Assembly (NCBI GenBank): GCA_025993875.1 | Contig: JAMQHH010000009.1 | Coordinates: forward strand, 1-53,939 | Source: Candidatus Dojkabacteria bacterium | GTDB lineage: Bacteria > Patescibacteriota > Dojkabacteria > J137 | Reading direction: 5' to 3' | Length of the DNA stretch: 53,939 bases | Part shown: positions 1 through 10,987 of the stretch, piece after piece | How the letters are laid out: the number at the start of each line of letters is the position of its first letter | How positions within the stretch are numbered: position 1 is the first letter of the stretch | Notes under the pieces: model-generated | Database searches by the model: none | Seen by the model: the letters and a program-made list of their open reading frames with translations, nothing else | Told to the model about the DNA's origin: nothing | Program-made: the position numbers and the translations under genes

Positions 1-1841
1 TTAATAATTGTAAGTGTTCTAAGCCCTAAAAAATCAAACTTCATAAAATCGAGCTTATCGATATATGTGCCGTCCATTTGGGTAATAATTTTTTCGGGAT
101 CTTTAGAATCTCTTTGTAGAGCCATATAATTGGTTATAGGCTCCGGTGTTATCAGGTAGCCTGCGGCGTGAGTCGAGATATGTCTTTTCATCCCGTCAAT
201 TTTTCTTACTACCTCTCCAAGTTTTTGTAATTCCGGCGAAGAATTAAGAAGTGTTTTAAATTCCTCCGAAGTTTCGAGCATTTTATCGATTGTAAAAGGT
301 TTTCCAAACAAAACAGTAACCATTTTTGATAATCGGTCTGCTGTTTTTAAATCTATGCCCATTACCCTTGCAACATCTCTAATAGCTGCTTTCGTTTTAA
401 GCTGTCCAAATGTACAAATTGCAGCAACTGAATCTTCCCCATATTTTTCTTTTGCATATTTTACAATTTCGTCCCTTCGATCGTCTTGGATATCCATATC
501 AATATCAGGAGGGGACGGTCTTTCGAGATTTAAAAATCTTTCGAAATAAAGTTCCCATTTAATAGGCTCGGCATTGGTAATATCGAGAGCATAAGATACA
601 ACAGAACCCGCTGCAGAACCCCTGGCTCCAACTAGAATACCGTTTCGTCTTCCGTATTGCATTAGGTCTCCTACCACCAAAAAGTAATCGTTGTAGCCTT
701 TTTTATCGATCACCATCAGTTCAAATTCAATTCTATCTACCAACTCTTTATCAAAAATTTTGGGAAGAATTGTAAAATCTGCCTTCTGTATTTTTTTTAT
801 TACAGAATCAATAGAGTATTGCGAAGTATTAACTTTGTACTTATCCAAAGCACCTATGTATGTCAACTTTTTTAGTTCTTCCTTAGCAGAACTTTCTTTG
901 GGGGTATTCCAAAAATGAGGCTGAACCCTTTCGCCTTTTAGAGAAAAATGTTCAATCTGTTCCGAAATTTTTAGAGTATTTTCAAGTGCCTCAGGAACGT
1001 CCGAAAATTTTGCTTTTATCTCATCTGGGGTAAGAATATACGTGCCTTCGTACCCTTTACGGATACCATCCTGATTTAAAAGTGTTCCATCTTTAATGCA
1101 AAATAGAATAGATTGGATATCTTTATCCTCTTTCTTAAGATAATGAGCATCTGTTGTTGCTACCAGTGGTAAATTAAATCTTTCGGCGTATTCTCTTAAT
1201 TTTATATTTACTTTAGCTTGAGCAAGTTGATTATCAATCGATTCCATATCTTCCTCTAGCTCCAGATTTAGGGAATCGTTATTCTGCTTAACATTATCAC
1301 TTCCATCAAACCCGTGTCTTTGCAGTTCCAGGTAAAAATTACCCGGGAATGCAGAACTTAAAAAATTAAGCCAGGAGATTGCTTTATCTTCCTCATTTTT
1401 TAAAATATGCCTCGACAAAGGTCCTGCAAGGCAGGCAGAGGTGCAAATAATTCCTTCGGAATATTTCGATAAAGTTTCTTTATCTATTCGGGGTTTATAA
1501 TACATTCCCTCGAGCTGTCCAATGCTAACCATCCTAACAAGATTTTTGTATCCGGTAAGGTTTTTAGCAAGAAGTAAAAGATGATAGTACTTTATTCCTT
1601 CAACAACTGAACGCAATGTTCTTTCTTTGGGTGCTAAATATACTTCGCACCCAATTATGGGATCTATTCCAAAGTCTTTTGATAATTTCCAAAATTCCGC
1701 TACCCCATACATTACTCCATGGTCGGTAATAGCAACAGAAGACATTCCAAGCTCTTTTACCCTTTCAAAAAGCTTTGGTATTCTATTTACTCCATCCAGC
1801 AAGGAATATTCGGTATGTACGTGTAAGTGTGTAAAACTCAT
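1..1841 (-). CDS. dnaE: DNA polymerase III alpha subunit, N-terminal part (runs off window edge; absent from ORF track)
   Basis: Manual translation from ATG at 1841 gives MSFTHLHVHTEYSLLDG (PHP domain), ATTDAHY, GARGSAAGSVVSYALDIT, FERFLNLERPSPPDIDMD and KFDFLGLRTL, all DnaE signatures. Confidence 0.96.
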   Translation of the reverse strand, partial: MSFTHLHVHTEYSLLDGVNRIPKLFERVKELGMSSVAITDHGVMYGVAEFWKLSKDFGIDPIIGCEVYLAPKERTLRSVVEGIKYYHLLLLAKNLTGYKNLVRMVSIGQLEGMYYKPRIDKETLSKYSEGIICTSACLAGPLSRHILKNEEDKAISWLNFLSSAFPGNFYLELQRHGFDGSDNVKQNNDSLNLELEEDMESIDNQLAQAKVNIKLREYAERFNLPLVATTDAHYLKKEDKDIQSILFCIKDGTLLNQDGIRKGYEGTYILTPDEIKAKFSDVPEALENTLKISEQIEHFSLKGERVQPHFWNTPKESSAKEELKKLTYIGALDKYKVNTSQYSIDSVIKKIQKADFTILPKIFDKELVDRIEFELMVIDKKGYNDYFLVVGDLMQYGRRNGILVGARGSAAGSVVSYALDITNAEPIKWELYFERFLNLERPSPPDIDMDIQDDRRDEIVKYAKEKYGEDSVAAICTFGQLKTKAAIRDVARVMGIDLKTADRLSKMVTVLFGKPFTIDKMLETSEEFKTLLNSSPELQKLGEVVRKIDGMKRHISTHAAGYLITPEPITNYMALQRDSKDPEKIITQMDGTYIDKLDFMKFDFLGLRTLTII

Positions 1842-1899
1842 TAACAAATTTTAGCAGAGAGAAGTAATTGAGAGCAAAATTTTTTGCTAAAAACTTTTC

Positions 1900-2634
1900 C
1901 TATTTATCACAAAGAATTGTTCTAACTGTTTCGCAAATGTTTTTTAAGCCCGTAAGAATTACATCGTATTTCATCCTGTTTGGACCAACAACTGCAATAT
2001 ACCCTTCAAAATTGCCGTTAATTCTAATCTCCGAAAAAACCACTGAATACTCGTTAAAATTGTCCATGCCGGCTTCTTCGCCAATTATAATGTTTAAATC
2101 GTTATCTGGAAGACCTTTATTTAAAAGTTCAGACATACTTTTATAGTCCTCTAAAATTCTTAAAATCTTTTGTAAAGACTCCGAATCTTTAAATTCGGGG
2201 ATATTTACCATTTCCGAAAGTCCAGAGTAATAAATATTATCTCTTAAAACAGCTATTGTGGCATTTCCGGCAATTTTACTTAAAAGATTTATCGCCTGCC
2301 TTATTAACATAGGCTTATCTTCCTTTAATTTATATAATACCGACTTAATGTTATTGTCGGGCATTATTGTAGTTTCATCATTATGTATTTTTTTTAAAAT
2401 ATCTTCTACAAAATATCTCCATCCTTTTGTTGTTGGAATTCTTCCTCCACTATTATGTTTTTGGTATAGATATCCCCCATACACCAAATCGGCCATTTCG
2501 TTTCGAATTGTAGCAGGGCTGATATCGAAATGGTATTTTGATTGAAGGCTAATAGAGCCTACAGCCTCGGCAGTCCCAATAAACTCCGAAATTATTAATA
2601 GTAGCAGTTTTTTTTGTCGATCAGTAATCTCCAT
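1900..2634 (-). CDS. hrcA: Heat-inducible transcription repressor HrcA
   Basis: N-terminal wHTH with SPATIRNEMADL, HNSGGRIPTTKGWRYFV, and C-terminal IAVVGPNRMKY. Confidence 0.92.
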   Translation of the reverse strand: MEITDRQKKLLLLIISEFIGTAEAVGSISLQSKYHFDISPATIRNEMADLVYGGYLYQKHNSGGRIPTTKGWRYFVEDILKKIHNDETTIMPDNNIKSVLYKLKEDKPMLIRQAINLLSKIAGNATIAVLRDNIYYSGLSEMVNIPEFKDSESLQKILRILEDYKSMSELLNKGLPDNDLNIIIGEEAGMDNFNEYSVVFSEIRINGNFEGYIAVVGPNRMKYDVILTGLKNICETVRTILCDK

Positions 2635-3042
2635 AAAATTTTCCCTTTTACGAATTTTACCAAAAAATATGCAAAACAGGTGAGTTTATATAACTTGAAT
2701 AACTCTTGTTAAGCTGAACAAAATTATTAATATTTTAACAATCCACGGTATGGATATAATCCAGAGGAAATAAATGCAGTTATCTTACGAAGTTGTTATA
2801 CTCTACAGGGAAACCCCAGGGGATCCGGCTTGATGAAAGAAGTCAAGAACGCACTTCCCAATGCGGTGTTGTTAGGCTCACAGAAAACAATGCCCAATTC
2901 TAGCGGTGATTATTCCGTTTTTCCGTTACCCGCAATTCCATATGGTTTAGGGTCGTTGGATGAGTTTACCAGATATATTATGAGGCCAGAAAGTTGAACT
3001 GAAAGAAAATGTTAGATCAAAACATTAACAAATATATAGACT

Positions 3043-3093
3043 TTAAACAACAATATTTAAAATTTTCCCCTTAACGTAAATTATCTTTTTTAT
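3043..3093 (-). repeat. Displaced copy of the leuS 3' end (direct repeat of 5529..5579); att-like
   Basis: 47/51 nt identical to 5529..5579. It encodes the same IKKIIYVKGKILNIVV* and all 4 differences are synonymous. Confidence 0.9.
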
Positions 3094-4169
3094 TTTTTTG
3101 TCTTAAATACATCAGCTAAAAGATAACTTGCGGTAGGAATACCATCTTGCAGTCTGTCATTTACAACAAGAATAAAAAATTTGCTTGGTATTCTAGAAAA
3201 CTCATTAACCAAAGCAATTTGACGCTCACCTATTGTACTCATAAGCTGTTCAAACGATAACTCTCTGTTGGCCAGTATTTCATCCCTGGATATTGCTCTA
3301 AGTGCCATATGCATTATAATTGGATGTGGTGGTAAAACGCAGATTACCTTCCCCAAAAAGTTTCTATCTTTTGCTTCCCGACTTTGAATAATTCTTGTAA
3401 CTATTTGAGGGTCTTCAATTACAACTGATATCGGCGATTGGGCTGCCCGATTCACCTCTGTATTTAATATCGTATACCACCCCCTGCCCGGGTTATATGT
3501 TAAATATAGCGCATGTTCTTCTACTCCCTCTACACTTTCAAAAAAAATTGTAATGCCTCTTACTCCACTCTTATCTTTTATTTTTTCTAAAAGTTCTTTC
3601 GAAAACCTATCTCCAACATTTATATTACTAATTCCCAAATTGTTAAGTGTTAATACATGTTCATCAGAAATTTTAGCACTGGTTAATAAATTTTCAATAT
3701 ATTCTTGATCTTTAAAATGATACGATTCTCCTGGGGTATCATCTGCCCGCACGGCTCTCGTTGTGGTACAAACAGCTTTATCTATATGTGTTCCCTCCAG
3801 TAAAGTTATAAGTCCTTTTAGTACTGTGTCCTTTCCAGCGCCACCAGGCCCAGCTACCGAAATCATAACCTTCCCAGAATTCATACTTTCAAGCTCTCTC
3901 TTTGTTTGTTCTAGAGTGGAAGAAGACAAACTATGCATTACGTCTACAACCCCCATACTTTCATTAATTCCCAGTTGAGCTGCAAGCTTATGAATAATAT
4001 CTTCAATTTGAGTTTGCAAACTCAAAATTTTGTTAATCTGAATAGGCTCTCGCATTAACAAAGCATTAAGTGCCTGTGGATATCTTTCTTGTAAATCATT
4101 AACAATCTCCTCCCCAAATGTACTTTGAAGAAGCTCCATATTTTTAGTATTGGGTAATTCAGTACTCAT
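3090..4169 (-). CDS. Divergent guanylate-kinase-like P-loop kinase with N-terminal extension
   Basis: GPGGAGKDT Walker A. TTTRAVRADDTPGESYHF resembles Gmk TTRxPRxGExxGxxYxF, and VLPP...ALRAISR is lid-like. Start placed at ATG 4169 (MSTELP); the ORF track extends to 4211. Confidence 0.65.
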   Translation of the reverse strand: MSTELPNTKNMELLQSTFGEEIVNDLQERYPQALNALLMREPIQINKILSLQTQIEDIIHKLAAQLGINESMGVVDVMHSLSSSTLEQTKRELESMNSGKVMISVAGPGGAGKDTVLKGLITLLEGTHIDKAVCTTTRAVRADDTPGESYHFKDQEYIENLLTSAKISDEHVLTLNNLGISNINVGDRFSKELLEKIKDKSGVRGITIFFESVEGVEEHALYLTYNPGRGWYTILNTEVNRAAQSPISVVIEDPQIVTRIIQSREAKDRNFLGKVICVLPPHPIIMHMALRAISRDEILANRELSFEQLMSTIGERQIALVNEFSRIPSKFFILVVNDRLQDGIPTASYLLADVFKTKK

Positions 4170-4235
4170 AAAAAAATCTTTCTTAAAAATTATTTTCAAA
4201 TTATATTGCATATTTACTATATAGTAAATTGCAGT

Positions 4236-5243
4236 TTATTGTTCTAATATTACAGGCATCATCACTTTTGCTTGTTCCCTTCTTTCTTCAATGGAGGTAT
4301 GAATCGAAGGTGCCTGAGGATCTCTTGCTGTAATTATGCCTGCTGCATCTAGCCCACCGCCATAAGAAACAAGGATAGGCGATATTGTAATTATTAGTTT
4401 ATTATCTCTTACTGTTATATATGTAACATACGAAGGTTGAGGCCTTGGATCATTAATGTTTTCTAGAAAACTTTTTACAATTTCATGGTATGCTTTATGA
4501 TGAGCTCTTAATATACTGTTAACTTCTGGTGCCAACGACTCAAAACCATCTTCAGAATTAAAAGTTACTGATACGTTGTACCCTGTGGGATAATTACTTA
4601 AATTTGGCTCAAAATTGCGCTGGCATTTTGAGTTTATTTTTTTCACAAAATCAAAAGATATATTTTTCCATAATTCTCTCTCAGTTTCTAACTCATCTTG
4701 AGAAAGTTGTTCAGATCTTGCCGGCTGCAAACTTGTACTCGAGAATGCCCCAACTTGAGCGTGAATGAATTTTATAGATCTTGGAACTCTAACCTGCCCA
4801 CTTACCTCTCTACATGTATTTTCAATAATAAAACAAGTATCATTACCAAATTCTTCTGAATTTGTATAAAAAAAATCCATAATCTTTAAGCAACATCTCC
4901 AGTACTCCTCAGAAATATAATCTGGCGCTTCGTGAACAATAGCAGCCAAAGAATCATTCGGATTGCTGTATGCATCAGGATTATCTAATGCAACCATAAA
5001 GTTATAATCTGAATAAGGGGCATCCGATACCATTACGTGTAAAACAAAGTTACCTTCAAGATCTTTAGAGTAAATAGATGCTCTGCGTAAAAACTGTGTA
5101 ATATTTTCTGGCAAATTCCATGCTCTAACAATTTCTTCAATGGAAAGCTTATGTCTTGTTTGCCCTCCTCCATTCACCGCATACCCGTTTTGAATTCTTG
5201 AGTATAAAATCCCAAGTTTTCCAAAAATTGTGTTTTCTGACAT
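4236..5243 (-). CDS. Hypothetical protein, possible GalT/Ap4A-phosphorylase (HIT superfamily)-like nucleotidyltransferase
   Basis: PYSDYNFMV, and SIKFIHAQ at 4755..4778 (HxQ like GalT HxHxQ). C-terminal PSYVTY...GGGLDAAG is reminiscent of the Ap4A phosphorylase second domain. The ORF is clear but the family call is tentative. Confidence 0.4.
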   Translation of the reverse strand: MSENTIFGKLGILYSRIQNGYAVNGGGQTRHKLSIEEIVRAWNLPENITQFLRRASIYSKDLEGNFVLHVMVSDAPYSDYNFMVALDNPDAYSNPNDSLAAIVHEAPDYISEEYWRCCLKIMDFFYTNSEEFGNDTCFIIENTCREVSGQVRVPRSIKFIHAQVGAFSSTSLQPARSEQLSQDELETERELWKNISFDFVKKINSKCQRNFEPNLSNYPTGYNVSVTFNSEDGFESLAPEVNSILRAHHKAYHEIVKSFLENINDPRPQPSYVTYITVRDNKLIITISPILVSYGGGLDAAGIITARDPQAPSIHTSIEERREQAKVMMPVILEQ

Positions 5244-5320
5244 AAATTTTAAATAAAAGTTACCCCAGATTTAATGCTAATCTTTCTGCTTAGTTACTAA
5301 TAACTGGCAGCAGTTACTGT

Positions 5321-5349
5321 ATTGTACTATAAAGTCTTTTGAAAAGCAA
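5321..5349 (-). promoter_or_regulatory. Sigma70-type promoter for the islet genes
   Basis: Minus strand reads TTGCTT-17 nt-TACAAT, followed by a TAACTG-N4-CAGTTA palindrome at 5301..5316. Confidence 0.5.
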
Positions 5350-5528
5350 TTTCATGGTTTTTACTGTGATTTTTGAGTATCAAAAGGAAAAAGAAGAAGT
5401 TTGCAACATTTTAACAAAATAGTAGAAAACTTTATGTAAACATACATATACCTCAATACTTTTCACATCTGATATGGCTGATAGGAAAGGAAGTACACTG
5501 AGCTATTTTTTAAAATCTTATTTCCTCC

Positions 5529-5579
5529 TTAAACAACAATATTTAAAATTTTCCCTTTTACGTATATTATCTTCTTTAT
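5529..5579 (-). repeat. leuS terminal 51 bp, second copy of the direct repeat
   Basis: Matches 3043..3093; the last 27 nt of the gene, including the stop, are identical. Confidence 0.9.
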
Positions 5580-8500
5580 CCCACCATCTAAATACTTTGC
5601 AATGTTTTTTTCCTCTTTGGCCATGGCCATAACTTCCCACTCCAGTGCCTCGGTTGAAACTTCGATAGTTCCCCTAACTTTCCCATTTATCTGAACAGCA
5701 ATTTTTACTGTCTCATCTTTTAAAAGCTCTTCCCTGGCTTCTGGCCAGCTTGATTGGTGAATGGAATAACTGTTGCCTAAAATGCTCCAAAGCTCTTCAG
5801 TAATAAATGGAGCAAAGGGGGCTAAAAGTTTAAGTAATATTTCAAATAGATCTTTTTTAACAAATTCAAATTCACCCAAATAGTTAACAGTTTCCATAAA
5901 TTTAGCAACTGAGGTGTTAAAAGAGAGGTTTTCTATATCACTACTTACTTTTTTAATAAGTTTATGTAAAGCAACCTCTTGCTTTTTTGCTACTTCGAGG
6001 TTTATCATTTCTGTTTTTACCCTGTCCTTTAGCTCCCAGACTTTCTTTAAAAATCTAAAGACACCGTTTTCTGCCCTATTGTTCCAAGGTTTTGCTTCTT
6101 CAAATGGTCCCATAAACATTTCGTACATTCTAAGGGTATCGGCACCAAACGTGTTTACTTCGTCCGTTGGATTTATAACATTTCCCCATCTTTTGCTCAT
6201 TTTTCTGCCGTCCGGCCCTAAAATTAAACCCATATGTCTCATCTTTGTAAAAGGCTCATCGAAATTAATATAGCCCTGGTCGAAAAAAAATTTGGTAAAA
6301 AATCTAGAATACAAAAGATGTAAAACTGTGTGCTCGGTTCCAATAATATACAAGTCCGAAGGAAGCCAAAGATTAGCCTGTGTATTTTGAGCCTCCAAAA
6401 AATTTATCAGCTGGGTGTTTTCTCTTCTTTTATAATGGTTAATCAAACTGTTTAAAGGCGCTATATATGCAATACTGCTATTAAATGGAACTAAAACTCT
6501 TTGTTCCCATATCTTTTTATCCCATTCTACCTCTATAAGTTCAACCTCTAAATCTCCTTTCTTAAATGCTAGAATCTGCCCTCTTTGGTCGTTTTTTAAT
6601 GTTACATATAAATTTTCGCTTTCAGATTCAAAGTTACAGCCAATAGTTTCTAAAATCTTTTTTGCAGTGTCGATAGAATCTTTTGAAATAAAAAAATCAA
6701 TATCTCCAAGCTCTTTGTGCGGAGATCTGTTTAACAAAGAAACGGCTACCGACCCGAAAACAGCATAATCAACTTTTTGTTCGGCAAATTTGCCTACGAG
6801 TGTTTCCAGCACTTGGTAAAGTGATTTGTTACTTTCGGAATTTGTAACTGAAGGCAAAAATTTTGGCAAAGAAAAGATTTCCGATTCGTTTTTATTTTCA
6901 ATGTATCTTAAAAAATACCAGCTGGAATCTACAAAAGTATCCATTGTGTCCGATTCAAAATACCATCCCTTACCGTATTTGGATTCGGCAATTTCTTTAA
7001 AACTTTTACTTGCTTTTATTGGAGATTCCCCGGTAGGCTTAAAATCTACATCTTCGGGCAGTAAAAGCGGCAGGTCCTCTTCTTTTACGGGATGAATGTT
7101 TCCTTCCGGATCGTAAACAATTGGTATCGGAGCTCCCCAATACCTTTGGCGAGAAACAAGCCAGTCCCGTAATTTATATAAAATAGTCTTTTCTCCTAAT
7201 TCGTTTTTTAAAAGCCAATCCTGCATTTCGCTTGTTGCAGTATCAGAACTTTTTTGCGAATAATCAATTTCTGCTTTTGAAAAGATAAATTCCAAAAGTT
7301 CATTCTCGCTCTTTGTTAAGTTAATGTCATTTACCGGTTCTTTTGTCGTTGAATTACTAAATTTATAGATTTCTGCAGAACTTACATACTCAAAAACATT
7401 TTCCCACTTTATATTTAAAGAGTTGAATTCTATAAATAATTCATCTTTTTCTTTGAGATCATAGCCAACAATAAAAAGTGAATTATCAGTTTTTAAAAAA
7501 TCTACACCCTGCCAATAGCCAAACCTGTTATAGCTTATTTTATATTTATCTTGTAACCTTTCTAAATCCGAATCGGCTATAAGCGGCTCTTTAATAACGA
7601 TTACCGATTTAACATAATCAAATCTAAATGGTTTTTTAAATGAATTTACTAAAACTCCTTTGCCTGTAAAGAGATTTTCGGGGAAATTTTCAATTTTAGT
7701 TTTTGTATCAAGCCCTAAATTTTTTGTCAATCTAACGCCTCGCAAAAGTATTTCCTGCCAGTGTTTTGTGCCTTCGGCATTGTAAGATTCTATAATTTCT
7801 TTCGGCGAAAGCCATACAAGTTCAAACCCGACTTCGTGCTCCTCCAAACTCAGCTCTTTTTTTTGTGCTGAATTTAAAACAACAAGCATTCCCTGTGTTT
7901 TTGCAAACCTGTTTATTTTTTTACCAGAATGATAATAGTGTGCATAAACAACCTCACCAAGTTTGTGAATAGATTCGTAGTCCCAAAGCCCTGTTTCTTC
8001 CATTAGCTCTCTTTTTGCAGTTTGGTAATAATCCTCGTTATCGCTTATACCACCAGAAACAAGCCCTACAAATCCGTTTTTATGTTTAATAAATCCATAC
8101 TCTCCATTTTGTTTATTAAACAAAACTAAAGATACACCATCAACAAACTGCTCGTTAGGTTTTGGTTCTCCAAACTCTTTTGCAATAACGGGAAATACAG
8201 GAAGGTTATATTTTACGGCAAATTCGTTGTCCCTTTCATCGTGGGCAGGAACTGCCATAATCGCACCGGTACCATAGGTATTTAAAACATAATCTGCAAC
8301 AAAAATTGGAAGCCTATCCTGGTTAAAAGGGTTAATAGCTTTAACCCCCATTAGCTCTACTCCTGTTTTTTCCTTTTGCATTTGGCGCTCGAGGTCTGTT
8401 TTATTTTTGGCAGCTTTTACGTATTCTCTAACCTCAGAGATATTTCGAATAACATCTTTATACTTCTCTATAACTTGATTTTCCGGCGATACAACTAAAA

Positions 8501-9284
8501 AGGTGCACCCGAAAATTGTGTCTAATCTGGTTGTAAAAATTTCAATTTCTCCGGGTAAAGTCGAAGTGAATTCACCTTCAACCTTAAATTTTACCTTTGT
8601 ACCCTCACTTTTACCTATCCAGTTTCTTTGTTGCTGTTTTGTTCCTTCGGGCCAATCTACTCTTTCGAGATCTTTATCCAGTCTATCGGCAAAATCTGTT
8701 ATCTTAAAAAACCACTGAGACATCTCTTTTTGTTCGACAAGGGTATCGCACCTTTCGCATTTGCCATCTATTACCTGTTCGTTTGCCAAAACAGTTTGGT
8801 CTTTTGGACACCAGTTTACTGGTGCAAGTTTTTTATATGCTAATCCTTTTTTGTAAAGCTGCAAAAATATCCATTGAGTCCATTTGTAATAATCGGCTCT
8901 ATGTGTTCCTACCTCTTTATCCCAGTCAACACCTATCCCAACTTTATTTATCTGCTCAATAAAATTAGCCACAGACTCCTCGGTTTTTATATGTGGATGA
9001 ACCCCTGTTTTTATGGCAAAGTTTTCGGCCGGTAATCCAAAGCCATCCCAGCCCATCGGCATAATTGTTGTAAAACCATTCATTCTGTAATATCTTGCAA
9101 CAATATCGTTCGCAACCATTCCCTCTACATGCCCAACATGCAATCCATCTCCCGAAGGATAAGGAAAAGAGTACAGAGAATAAAACTTCTTGGTATTGCT
9201 ATCAATTAAACCCGCTGAATAGATTTTATCTTTTAACCACTTTTCTCTCCATTTTGTTTCGAAGTCACTTGGTTTGTATTCCAT
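5529..9284 (-). CDS. leuS: Leucine--tRNA ligase with three inserted domains (Nudix, unknown, nucleotidyltransferase)
   Basis: FPYPSGDGLHVGH (HIGH), GWDGFGLPAEN, editing motifs TTRLDT and GTGAIMAVPAHD, LRDWLVSRQRYWG, TMDTFVDSSWY and KMSKR. At 1251 aa it is far longer than a typical bacterial LeuRS. Confidence 0.97.
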   Translation of the reverse strand: MEYKPSDFETKWREKWLKDKIYSAGLIDSNTKKFYSLYSFPYPSGDGLHVGHVEGMVANDIVARYYRMNGFTTIMPMGWDGFGLPAENFAIKTGVHPHIKTEESVANFIEQINKVGIGVDWDKEVGTHRADYYKWTQWIFLQLYKKGLAYKKLAPVNWCPKDQTVLANEQVIDGKCERCDTLVEQKEMSQWFFKITDFADRLDKDLERVDWPEGTKQQQRNWIGKSEGTKVKFKVEGEFTSTLPGEIEIFTTRLDTIFGCTFLVVSPENQVIEKYKDVIRNISEVREYVKAAKNKTDLERQMQKEKTGVELMGVKAINPFNQDRLPIFVADYVLNTYGTGAIMAVPAHDERDNEFAVKYNLPVFPVIAKEFGEPKPNEQFVDGVSLVLFNKQNGEYGFIKHKNGFVGLVSGGISDNEDYYQTAKRELMEETGLWDYESIHKLGEVVYAHYYHSGKKINRFAKTQGMLVVLNSAQKKELSLEEHEVGFELVWLSPKEIIESYNAEGTKHWQEILLRGVRLTKNLGLDTKTKIENFPENLFTGKGVLVNSFKKPFRFDYVKSVIVIKEPLIADSDLERLQDKYKISYNRFGYWQGVDFLKTDNSLFIVGYDLKEKDELFIEFNSLNIKWENVFEYVSSAEIYKFSNSTTKEPVNDINLTKSENELLEFIFSKAEIDYSQKSSDTATSEMQDWLLKNELGEKTILYKLRDWLVSRQRYWGAPIPIVYDPEGNIHPVKEEDLPLLLPEDVDFKPTGESPIKASKSFKEIAESKYGKGWYFESDTMDTFVDSSWYFLRYIENKNESEIFSLPKFLPSVTNSESNKSLYQVLETLVGKFAEQKVDYAVFGSVAVSLLNRSPHKELGDIDFFISKDSIDTAKKILETIGCNFESESENLYVTLKNDQRGQILAFKKGDLEVELIEVEWDKKIWEQRVLVPFNSSIAYIAPLNSLINHYKRRENTQLINFLEAQNTQANLWLPSDLYIIGTEHTVLHLLYSRFFTKFFFDQGYINFDEPFTKMRHMGLILGPDGRKMSKRWGNVINPTDEVNTFGADTLRMYEMFMGPFEEAKPWNNRAENGVFRFLKKVWELKDRVKTEMINLEVAKKQEVALHKLIKKVSSDIENLSFNTSVAKFMETVNYLGEFEFVKKDLFEILLKLLAPFAPFITEELWSILGNSYSIHQSSWPEAREELLKDETVKIAVQINGKVRGTIEVSTEALEWEVMAMAKEEKNIAKYLDGGIKKIIYVKGKILNIVV

Positions 9285-9300: not shown

Positions 9301-9504
9301 TTAACGAATTTTAAAATCTTTACAAAGATTAAGTGGGTCGGCATTTAAACTTCCAGTTCTTATTATAAGTTGATAGCAATATTCATTTTTAAACCAATCC
9401 TGGTTTCTAATTCCAAAAAAGATTAAAGTTAATGAACAGCAACACAAAAGGCAACAAAAAGGTATAATGCTTAGCATAAATCCTAAAAGAGTAATTGTTT
9501 TCAT
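9301..9504 (-). CDS. Small Cys-rich single-pass membrane protein (hypothetical)
   Basis: ATG start, hydrophobic N-terminal half with CCLLCCC, and ends 16 nt upstream of leuS in the same orientation. Confidence 0.45.
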   Translation of the reverse strand: MKTITLLGFMLSIIPFCCLLCCCSLTLIFFGIRNQDWFKNEYCYQLIIRTGSLNADPLNLCKDFKIR

Positions 9505-9565
9505 AATAGATAGTTGGTTAAATAATTACAATTATATTATCTAAAGGCAAATTAGAAAAGAGTAT

Positions 9566-10987
9566 ATGAAAAAAGCTAAAATCTGGGTGTTAGCGCTATC
9601 TGGACACGGTCCTTCGTGTTTGGACAGTTTAATTATGGATCATAACATTATGACCTTTTTAATGGTTGATGATTTTGGCGGTGATACGAAAACGCAGATT
9701 CACTTTATCGAAACAATGTTTAAAATCTCTCAAGAACCGAACGGTGTTGAAGAGATACAAAGAATCTCAGATAGTTGGAAAAAACTTTACCCAAAAACAT
9801 ATAAAAAAATTGAAAGTATAAGGCCTCCCGGCGATTTAAAATCTAACCAGATTAGATTTGCCCAATATTTAAATAAAGGTGAAAAGGGAAAAGAAATTTC
9901 TGAACTTCTTTTTTTTAGAAGCAATAATTTTTTAGAAGTAAAAAATGCAACTTTAAAGCTTTTAACTATTTTAAACGTTAGCAACAACCTAAAAAAAAGA
10001 GCTGACCAATTTTTAGAGATCTACCAAAAATATCTGGAGGAGTTTACAAATAATAGCATTTTAGACACCAAAACTTCGGTTGGGAATCTTTTTAACAATT
10101 TTTTAATGTGCGAATACTTTGGAGAGGATAAAAAGTTTTTTAACGAAATTAAGCGCCTAAAACTTTTACCTAAACATGTTAGGTTTGAATTTATCTCCAA
10201 AACCAGAGCAATCCTTGTTGCATCCGACTCTCAAACTACCTTAATAGGAGAAGATGTTATCGATAAAAACAATAATCCTATAACACCGCATTCTTATACT
10301 TTAGTTGATAAATCACCTCCATTTAACAAAAAAGTGGAGATTAAACTGGATGTTTTAGAAGAGTATTTTAAAAAGGCCGAATTTATTATTATTCCACCCG
10401 GTTCTATTGCTAACCAGCTGCCTTTAATAAATGCTATTGCTCCAAAGATAATCAGTTGGGGAAAACCGGTTTTTTGGATAATAAATTCGTTTATTCATAA
10501 TGGAGAGGCCGAGGTAATTGAACTTGTTAGATATTTTTATACAAAGCAAAATGGGTTAGGTGTAGGAATTAAACCGATTATCCTCTCTCCCAAGCTCTCT
10601 CCATACGAATTTTTGGGAGAATCAATAAAACAGGGTAAAATCTCGTTCGAGATAGCAATTCATTTTATAAATGAATATATTCTGCAGTCCAAAAAGCCTG
10701 TAATGGTAACTAAACTTTTAATGGAAGAGCTTGAAAAATTTCCTTTGGCTTCTAAACGAACATTTTCTATAATTGATTTTATTTTACAAAAGCCCGGCGA
10801 AGGAGGCATAAGGTACAGCCAGGAACAACTAAAAAGGATTTTTGAACTTATTACCGATATAGTAAGAAAAGAAAAAGATACTAACAAAACCGTAGAATTT
10901 TTAAGAAAAATTTTTGGCGATAATATGTATCTAAACCAAAGCTATTTAGAAGAAAGTTCGAAGGAACAACTTCCTCCAATAATTTAA
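9566..10987 (+). CDS. Divergent CofD/YvcK (GlmR, UPF0052)-like protein
   Basis: LSGHG, VDDFGGDT, RPPGDLK and IIIPPGSI correspond in order to the family motifs GGGTG, DDGGSS, PPGDxR and GPGS. Confidence 0.55.
   Translation: MKKAKIWVLALSGHGPSCLDSLIMDHNIMTFLMVDDFGGDTKTQIHFIETMFKISQEPNGVEEIQRISDSWKKLYPKTYKKIESIRPPGDLKSNQIRFAQYLNKGEKGKEISELLFFRSNNFLEVKNATLKLLTILNVSNNLKKRADQFLEIYQKYLEEFTNNSILDTKTSVGNLFNNFLMCEYFGEDKKFFNEIKRLKLLPKHVRFEFISKTRAILVASDSQTTLIGEDVIDKNNNPITPHSYTLVDKSPPFNKKVEIKLDVLEEYFKKAEFIIIPPGSIANQLPLINAIAPKIISWGKPVFWIINSFIHNGEAEVIELVRYFYTKQNGLGVGIKPIILSPKLSPYEFLGESIKQGKISFEIAIHFINEYILQSKKPVMVTKLLMEELEKFPLASKRTFSIIDFILQKPGEGGIRYSQEQLKRIFELITDIVRKEKDTNKTVEFLRKIFGDNMYLNQSYLEESSKEQLPPII

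Follow-up and report, generated by a model that had tools for sequence, protein, structure and literature searches.

A conserved gene pair of Patescibacteria coding for a GalT-branch HIT-type protein and a divergent guanylate-kinase-family protein

Closest described systems

The Leloir galK–galT operon has the gene for a kinase next to that for a GalT-type nucleotidyl transferase. A comparable arrangement, a pair of adjacent genes that we call A and B, was found in a 53,939-nucleotide (nt) stretch of DNA from a Candidatus Dojkabacteria bacterium (assembly GCA_025993875.1, contig JAMQHH010000009.1, positions 1–53,939 of the forward strand; hereafter the window). Gene A (4236–5243, minus strand) codes for a protein of 335 amino acids (aa) assigned to the GalT branch of the HIT family, with two tandem HIT-like half-domains; gene B (3090–4169, minus strand) codes for a divergent P-loop kinase of the guanylate kinase (Gmk) family, 359 aa long when counted from Met15. 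The likeness to the Leloir operon is one of functional analogy only: GalK belongs to the GHMP sugar kinases and is no Gmk-fold kinase of nucleoside monophosphates, its gene stands on the other side of the transferase gene, and B has no sugar-kinase signature. Each of the two proteins belongs to a known superfamily, and the pair does not amount to a new type of system.

Several groups of GalT-branch enzymes invite comparison with A. The best structural matches were to the Arabidopsis protein At5g18200 (PDB 1ZWJ, 1Z84 and 2H39; E-values from 3.4e-5 to 7.6e-4), with Escherichia coli GalT (1GUP) at 2.4e-2. Class I GalT and At5g18200 share with A the tandem HIT half-domains, a phi-phi-phi-E-N strand (phi, hydrophobic residue) followed by S-x4-H-x-Q, and a His in the middle of the chain; the EN strand of A resembles the 'VFENKG' of GalT. 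They differ from A in having the Zn-ligand His of HxHxQ, and in A the stretch from the EN strand to the His is longer by six residues. Yeast Apa2 (PDB 4I5T) and the Apa1/2 ATP adenylyltransferase group are, like A, single chains of about 320–335 aa (Foldseek E-value 6e-4, probability 0.97), and S156, H161 and Q163 have identical residue numbers in Apa2 and A. Still, there is no detectable sequence similarity between the two, H159 of Apa2 is replaced by a hydrophobic residue in A, and the TM-score is about 0.3. The DUF4931 protein BCE0241 (PDB 4QVU), an uncharacterised GalT-like HIT protein, was the first- and second-ranked match across two models of A; it is shorter than A (217 aa in the structure).

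For B the closest described enzyme is Gmk (E. coli b3648; TIGR03263; PF00625). Common to both are the P-loop, the TTR..R..Y.F motif, the LPP strand, the R-x3-R and additional Arg of the LID region, and a C-terminal VND. Unlike Gmk, B has an insert of about 60 aa and an N-terminal extension of about 98 aa, has WYT where Gmk has YGT, and does not keep the guanine-contact Ser.

Conservation of the A–B pair

We observed A and B adjacent to each other, in the same order and orientation, in six different neighbourhoods (window, L001-8 and L025; L009; L010/11; L015; L016; L017). The site between leuS and hrcA carries the pair in the window, in two related species (L001-8) and in a close strain (L025); L016 is a short contig, whose end cuts the B-like gene. 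Identity among paired loci goes down to 28% for A and to 27% for B. The gap between the two genes is 20–66 nt in all seven paired loci compared, and pairwise identities of A are strongly correlated with those of B across the loci (r=0.94). The gene located 3′ of A was confirmed as B-like by hhalign (E-values of 1.7e-51 and 7e-29). An earlier note on this DNA, made from the sequence alone, had taken the two genes for a functional module and had left their co-occurrence elsewhere to a neighbourhood survey; adjacency in six contexts answers that point in its favour. The pair is retained in genomes of <1 Mb, as judged from contigs of 640–720 kb. A search for related loci in genome contigs gave none for A and one for B, and in metagenome contigs it gave one locus.

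Members of both families also occur alone. Solo A-like genes adjoin genes for NTP_transferase, for glycosyltransferases, for Polysacc_synt_2 and DegT, or a gene for a 522-aa protein. Solo B-like genes code for proteins of about 320–330 aa and are seen in other Patescibacteria, e.g. adjoining rplJ–rplL.

In one locus with a solo A-like gene (L018), the 522-aa gene and a YgjP-like gene are followed by a gene for a 232-aa P-loop kinase similar to AAA_17/CoaE (9447–10145), which is a possible further kinase partner of A-family proteins. In one Patescibacteria metagenome-assembled genome a solo B-like kinase gene is followed by a gene for a Fic-domain protein (L024, 4543–5373), and another Fic protein is encoded near a solo A-like gene (L019, 8845–9909); the presence of Fic proteins near solo genes of the two families may be due to chance.

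Gene A: a GalT-branch fold with a modified HIT motif

The sequence of A had no match in Pfam, NCBIfam or the sequences of PDB entries. With 70 aligned members of the A family no HIT- or GalT-type Pfam model was matched at E-values up to 0.1, the profile built from these 70 sequences had no match among PDB sequences, and an hhalign comparison of A with E. coli GalT was not significant (probability 0.9%). A word-index search found only two relatives of A; an exhaustive profile search widened this to a family of about 105 clusters (50% identity), in which almost every protein is 330–390 aa long.

The fold was recognised at the level of structure. The AlphaFold2 model of A computed from the 70-sequence alignment had a predicted local distance difference test score (pLDDT) of 94.4 and a predicted TM-score (pTM) of 0.93. 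In a Foldseek search of this model against PDB the top 10 matches were all GalT-branch HIT enzymes (best E-value 3.4e-5, probabilities 0.69–1.00); among them were the ADP-glucose phosphorylase At5g18200, DUF4931, a uridylyltransferase, yeast Apa2 and E. coli GalT. DUF4931 and Apa2 had already been matched by a first, shallower model (pLDDT 72). A search of a viral structure library gave nothing significant. With a confident model and a uniform list of best matches, the HIT/GalT fold that the earlier note had suggested for A is borne out.

The predicted active-site block of A (4755–4823, minus strand) reads E141-N142 ... R152-x-P-R155-S156-x4-H161-A-Q163. In the 70 sequences, which overall are only about 20% identical, the family motif is [ST]-x4-H-x-[QH]. 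His161 is invariant (70 of 70). Position 163 is Gln in 40 sequences, as in the GalT branch, and His in 26, as in the Hint/Fhit branch; position 156 is Ser in 47 and Thr in 23. E141, N142 and R155 are each present in 67–68 of the 70 members (96–97%) and R152 in 93% of them. At position 159, that of the first His of HxHxQ, we saw Leu, Val, Phe and other residues, with His in none of the 70 sequences; the motif H-x-H-x-Q-phi-phi with both histidines is thus not found in the A family. It had been noticed earlier that A has HxQ in place of HxHxQ while retaining the nucleophilic His and the Gln, and the IHAQV segment along with the invariance of His161 agree with that description.

The alpha-phosphate-binding Ser, the two His and the Gln are S156/H159/H161/Q163 in Apa2 and S161/H164/H166/Q168 in E. 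coli GalT (bioRxiv 10.64898/2026.09.13.751320). Judging by its sequence, A keeps the S-x4-H-x-Q spacing identical to that of both enzymes, and His161 is the probable equivalent of the catalytic His, given motif spacing and conservation. According to this preprint, the first His stabilises the nucleophilic one through its main-chain carbonyl, and its side chain binds Zn in class I enzymes (bioRxiv 10.64898/2026.09.13.751320); since it is the main chain that stabilises the nucleophile, loss of this side chain in A need not abolish catalysis.

Two distant members of the A family, P0022 (534 aa) and P0105 (514 aa), are extended at the C-terminus by about 190 aa, which match no family and contain no P-loop. 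A fusion of A with B was considered and rejected: the two long proteins carry neither a P-loop nor a Pfam match, and the 522-aa protein whose gene follows a distant A-like gene has no relationship to B.

Gene B: a remodelled guanylate-kinase fold

Annotation models recognise B poorly. PF00625 scored 31 bits against a cut-off of 25.2 and covered residues 119–177 only; TIGR03263 gave 42.5 bits, below its equivalog cut-off of 160.45, and NF011325 gave 28 against a cut-off of 263. Alignment of a profile of 24 B-family sequences with a profile of 14 Gmk sequences by hhalign was significant (E-value 1.6e-20) and paired the P-loop, the TTR..R..Y.F motif, RGWY with (Y)YG(T), IED with DID, and VLPP with ILPPS; in a relaxed run the alignment reached the C-terminal block, where VVND of B stands opposite IVND. 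The family consists of about 25 clusters at 90% identity and is well separated from canonical Gmks (scores of 126 bits or more in the family, 57 bits or less in the Gmks). One homologue, 29% identical, is in a Patescibacteria group bacterium and another in Candidatus Abawacabacteria; one family member is labelled 'hypothetical protein' by NCBI.

The P-loop GPGGAGKDT (3825–3851, minus strand) is invariant in 24 family members, and so is TTRAVRADDTPGESYHF, both being present in B. The motif predicted to bind the phosphate of the nucleoside monophosphate (NMP), TTR-x2-R ... G-x2-Y-x-F (3714–3764, minus strand), aligns with TTRxPRxGExxGxxYxF of Gmk; T150, T151, R152, R155, G161, Y164 and F166 are invariant in the family. 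In the LID region (3222–3299, minus strand) R305, R309 and R330 are invariant: the R-x3-R and the third Arg are invariant in the B family and in Gmk alike, and the flanking VLPP and VVND align with ILPPS and IVND of Gmk. The identification of B as a Gmk-like kinase by its P-loop and TTR..R...G..Y.F motif, made in the earlier note, stands on this family-wide invariance.

Other parts of the protein have been rebuilt. The insert in the NMP-binding domain (3492–3689, minus strand) has no Gmk counterpart in the profile alignment and takes the place of the Gmk hairpin that bears the guanine-binding Glu; it is missing from one family member, P0134 (274 aa). Its presence had been noted before, with an estimated length of 40 aa, which should be corrected to about 60 aa. 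The RGWY motif (3474–3485, minus strand) is family-invariant and occupies the position of YYG(T) in Gmk. In the profile–profile alignment WYTI of B is opposite YYGT, just as the reported replacement of YGT by WYT implied; the solo B clade has WYG. The N-terminal extension (3876–4169, minus strand) has no counterpart in Gmk and is fast-evolving; the previously given length of 100 aa is close to the about 98 aa that we find. As far as the sequence goes, B looks like an active phosphotransferase with a rebuilt acceptor site.

Absence of guanylate kinase has been reported for lineages of Patescibacteria: Microgenomatia 'lack guanylate kinase' (PMC9166423), and the cultivated Patescibacterium OT8 has no Gmk (bioRxiv 10.64898/2026.06.21.733656). 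When we ran the Gmk profile over the 54-kb window and 316 kb of related DNA, the only matches were B-family proteins. Given the published reports, B may simply be the only housekeeping Gmk of the genome, a case that the earlier note had considered.

Divergence rates and strain comparison

Between the window and L001 protein identity was 95% for HrcA, 94% for DnaE, 85% for LeuRS, 75% for A and 56% for B. The N-terminal domain of B was only 36–39% identical in every pair, including the one with a close relative whose HrcA is 95% identical. In comparison with the near-identical strain L025, A is 100% identical and the block 2743–5267 is 99.4% identical, while the adjoining hrcA–dnaE segment (1–2742) is only 95.8% identical. 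Four of the six residue changes in B between the two strains are in the N-terminal extension (M25K, S30N, N60E) or in the insert; six changed codons are too few for a test of selection (the chance of the pattern is about 0.2 under neutrality). Contigs from 7 DNA runs and 4 runs labelled as metatranscriptomes contained no variant in A–B, and clusters of single-nucleotide polymorphisms flank the pair (2827–2886 and 5922–6032). An unchanged A and an invariant A–B block next to flanks of 95.8% identity suggest that the block has recently been swept or transferred.

Repeats of the leuS 3′-end

Three copies of the leuS tail are present in direct orientation. Copy i (5529–5579, minus strand) comprises the last 16 codons of leuS and the stop codon. 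Copy ii (3043–3093, minus strand) begins inside the stop codon of B and is identical to copy i at 47 of 51 positions, all four differences being synonymous in leuS; it is seen only in the lineage of the window and L025 and is absent 3′ of B in L001 and L005. Copy iii (2634–2659, minus strand), 26 nt of the leuS tail, abuts the hrcA ATG on the upstream side and is found in L001 as well. Direct repeats that duplicate the 3′-end of a target gene, a characteristic of integrative elements, are therefore present at this site. Among the open reading frames (ORFs) between leuS and hrcA there was no integrase, recombinase or other mobility gene, and no empty-site allele (a junction skipping A–B) was found in the 7 DNA and 4 metatranscriptome-labelled runs.

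We considered the possibility that A–B is a recently inserted islet bounded by the leuS-tail repeat, and rejected it in this simple form: L001 and L005 hold A–B at this site without the 51-nt copy. The 455-nt spacer between B and hrcA contains the C-terminal 84 codons of a gene for a 303-aa protein (window 2743–2997, plus strand), which is intact in strain L025 (2271–3182, minus strand); relative to L025 the window has a 724-bp deletion with its junction at 2742/2743. The 303-aa protein has no Pfam, PADLOC or PDB match. As copy ii accompanies this gene and is absent from L001 and L005, it may belong to the insertion of the 303-aa gene rather than to the A–B pair. Copy iii is present in L001 too, which suggests that insertions have long been frequent in the leuS–hrcA interval as a whole. 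The three copies look as if DNA had been inserted several times at the leuS 3′ site, with no recombinase nearby.

Proposed function and alternative explanations

We consider it possible, if somewhat short of probable, that A and B work together in the salvage of nucleotides or nucleotide sugars. From fold, motifs and pairing we infer catalytic activities, substrates, order of steps and coupling of the two proteins as follows. The bacterium would be unable to make its own nucleotides, and A with B would be a two-enzyme salvage unit. A would be an active GalT-branch HIT nucleotidyl transferase or phosphorylase, in which His161 attacks the alpha-phosphate of a substrate NMP-P-X (a nucleoside diphosphate (NDP) sugar, a dinucleoside polyphosphate or similar) and a covalent NMP–His is formed, as in the ping-pong catalysis of the GalT branch; Ser156 and Gln163 would hold the phosphates, and the NMP would then be handed to phosphate, to a phosphorylated acceptor or to water. 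B would be an active Gmk-family kinase that converts NMP and ATP to the diphosphate, and it possibly stands in for the canonical guanylate kinase reported missing in these lineages. As A would handle NMP-P-X and B would make NDP, both enzymes may take part in adjacent conversions (NMP, NDP, NDP-X) within a single nucleotide pool. Consistent with salvage are the solo A-like genes beside NDP-sugar genes, the housekeeping neighbours of the pair, the lack of a PADLOC match, the unchanged presence of the region in 20 sludge and wastewater runs and the lack of an empty site in the 7 DNA and 4 metatranscriptome-labelled runs.

A number of observations weigh against this proposal. TM-scores of A to solved GalT-branch structures are low (0.3–0.45), so that its relationship to known enzymes of the branch is distant, and sequence profiles make no link between A and these structures. 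Gmk contacts guanine with the Ser before TTR, the Glu on the hairpin and YGT. In B this set is lost or altered (the Ser, four residues before the Arg of TTR, is Cys, Asn or Val in the B family), and GMP may therefore not be the substrate of B. Many A-like genes and some B-like genes stand without a partner alongside. The comparison with L001 shows a far higher rate of evolution for B than for the housekeeping genes around it (56% versus 85–95% identity), and the eight nucleotide differences between B and its counterpart in L025 are all nonsynonymous, with no synonymous one. Finally, the pair is bracketed by direct repeats of the leuS 3′-end.

The last three of these points, on the rate of evolution, the nonsynonymous differences and the repeats, would fit better with an accessory or conflict module, for defence, toxin–antidote action or host manipulation, which makes, modifies or depletes a nucleotide and which came to the leuS 3′-end as mobile cargo. 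We regard this explanation as unlikely. The interval is indeed bracketed by the 51-nt and 26-nt direct repeats of leuS-tail sequence, but no integrase or mobility gene lies in it, and in relatives whose A is 57–76% identical the pair occupies this site although the downstream repeat is missing. The adjoining 303-aa gene is present or absent between strains and the contexts of the pair in other lineages are unrelated, both in favour of this explanation; A–B itself, however, showed no presence/absence polymorphism in the 7 DNA and 4 metatranscriptome-labelled runs and is kept in genomes of <1 Mb. Also in its favour are the N-terminal domain of B, so diverged even from the closest species, and the purely nonsynonymous changes of B next to an unchanged A and flanks at 95.8%, yet selection cannot be tested on as few as six altered codons. 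In PADLOC and PHROGs we found only non-specific P-loop matches for B (E-values 0.006–0.06) and none for A, which leaves the module with no defence match. The earlier note had pictured an accessory pair acting on a non-standard nucleotide, as in nucleotide-pool defence, toxin–antitoxin or host-manipulation systems. Fold, motifs and pairing support what it said of the enzymes; the accessory or defence role found no family match, and the stable presence of the pair among the housekeeping genes of very small genomes speaks against it.

Another explanation is that the two genes are independent: B is simply the housekeeping guanylate kinase of the lineage in diverged form, A serves envelope or stress metabolism as an enzyme of the NDP-sugar or diadenosine tetraphosphate (Ap4A) type, and adjacency reflects co-expression only. 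Solo B-like kinases beside ribosomal protein genes in other Patescibacteria, solo A-like genes beside NDP-sugar and glycosyltransferase genes, and the reports that canonical Gmk is missing (PMC9166423; bioRxiv 10.64898/2026.06.21.733656) all agree with it. Nevertheless, adjacency, order and orientation have been kept through at least five rearranged contexts and down to 27–28% identity, with congruent divergence of A and B; such conservation is unusual for unrelated functions where operon conservation is low, and we doubt that the genes are independent. That one partner is catalytically dead, with A a HIT-fold regulator or scaffold of kinase B or the reverse, appears highly improbable. The first His of HxHxQ is indeed absent in 70 of 70 members of the A family and there is no sequence-level link to active families; still, the nucleophilic His is invariant, and 93–100% conservation of Ser/Thr, Gln/His, Glu-Asn and several Arg at about 20% overall identity is the pattern of a maintained active site. 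Besides, the role of the first His is not a catalytic one but that of its main chain or of a Zn ligand (bioRxiv 10.64898/2026.09.13.751320).

Within the preferred reading of A–B as a salvage pair, a bolder version can be imagined, which we rate as quite unlikely: the pair would be a Patescibacteria-specific shortcut replacing missing textbook enzymes. B would be the GMP kinase or broad NMP kinase of lineages annotated as having no Gmk; A would carry out reverse phosphorolysis (NDP + sugar-1-phosphate to NDP-sugar + inorganic phosphate) or harvest NDP or NMP from NDP-sugars or dinucleoside polyphosphates (NpnN) of the host; and the N-terminal domain of B would dock onto A. If this were true, scavenged NMPs would reach envelope precursors or the GDP pool at the cost of one ATP and with no pyrophosphorylase dependent on nucleoside triphosphates.

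Patescibacteria account for much of the diversity of bacteria and depend on nucleotides that they scavenge; metabolic reconstructions have repeatedly found their guanylate kinase missing. The B family, far under annotation cut-offs, is an obvious candidate to fill the reported Gmk gap. Both A and B are small, soluble proteins that lend themselves to assays. The A family, invisible to sequence models, would be a fourth group beside GalT, Ap4A phosphorylase and adenosine 5′-phosphosulfate (APS):phosphate adenylyltransferase.

Gene layout and neighbourhood

A and B are genuine genes, as each has conserved homologues. The longest ORF of B extends over 3090–4211; as all relatives begin at the residue equivalent to Met15 (ATG at 4167–4169), we placed the start there, which gives a protein of 359 aa and an A–B gap of 66 nt. 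The ORF list and the starts of relatives agree with the two co-oriented ORFs 66 nt apart described earlier. The spacer (4170–4235, minus strand) contains a sequence that is promoter-like by match to the consensus, TTTACT-17-TATAAT (10 of 12 positions).

The pair is located on the minus strand between leuS (5529–9284) and hrcA (1900–2634), with leuS, hrcA, dnaE, cca and dnaK as housekeeping neighbours. The G+C content of the window is 35%, and the region was found unchanged in about 20 DNA metagenome runs from activated sludge or wastewater. In contigs of the metatranscriptome-labelled runs the depth over the pair is flat and equal to that of neighbouring genes and intergenic DNA; these runs contain contigs of 90–180 kb, and carry-over of DNA is possible.

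The leuS–A intergenic region (5244–5528, minus strand; 285 nt) contains the putative promoter (5321–5349) and the palindrome (5301–5316) of the earlier note. The promoter sequence TTGCTT-17-TACAAT does exist (−35 at 5344–5349 and −10 at 5321–5326, minus strand), but it matches only 8 of 12 consensus positions, which is under the threshold of our scan, and only its −10 element is conserved in a relative of 76% identity. A sigma-70 scan of the region found 11 promoter-like sites versus 11.9 in shuffled sequences, i.e. no excess. The palindrome TAACTG-GCAG-CAGTTA is likewise real, but its arms are not kept in the 76% relative. An Rfam scan of 1800–5700 gave no significant match.

LeuRS, encoded by leuS (5529–9284, minus strand), is 1251 aa long; in precomputed Pfam matches of its relatives NUDIX and NTP_transf_5 domains are inserted between the synthetase modules. 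Adjoining leuS is a gene for a 473-aa protein (9566–10987, plus strand), which has no Pfam or PADLOC match and is 79% and 64% identical to its counterparts in two related species.

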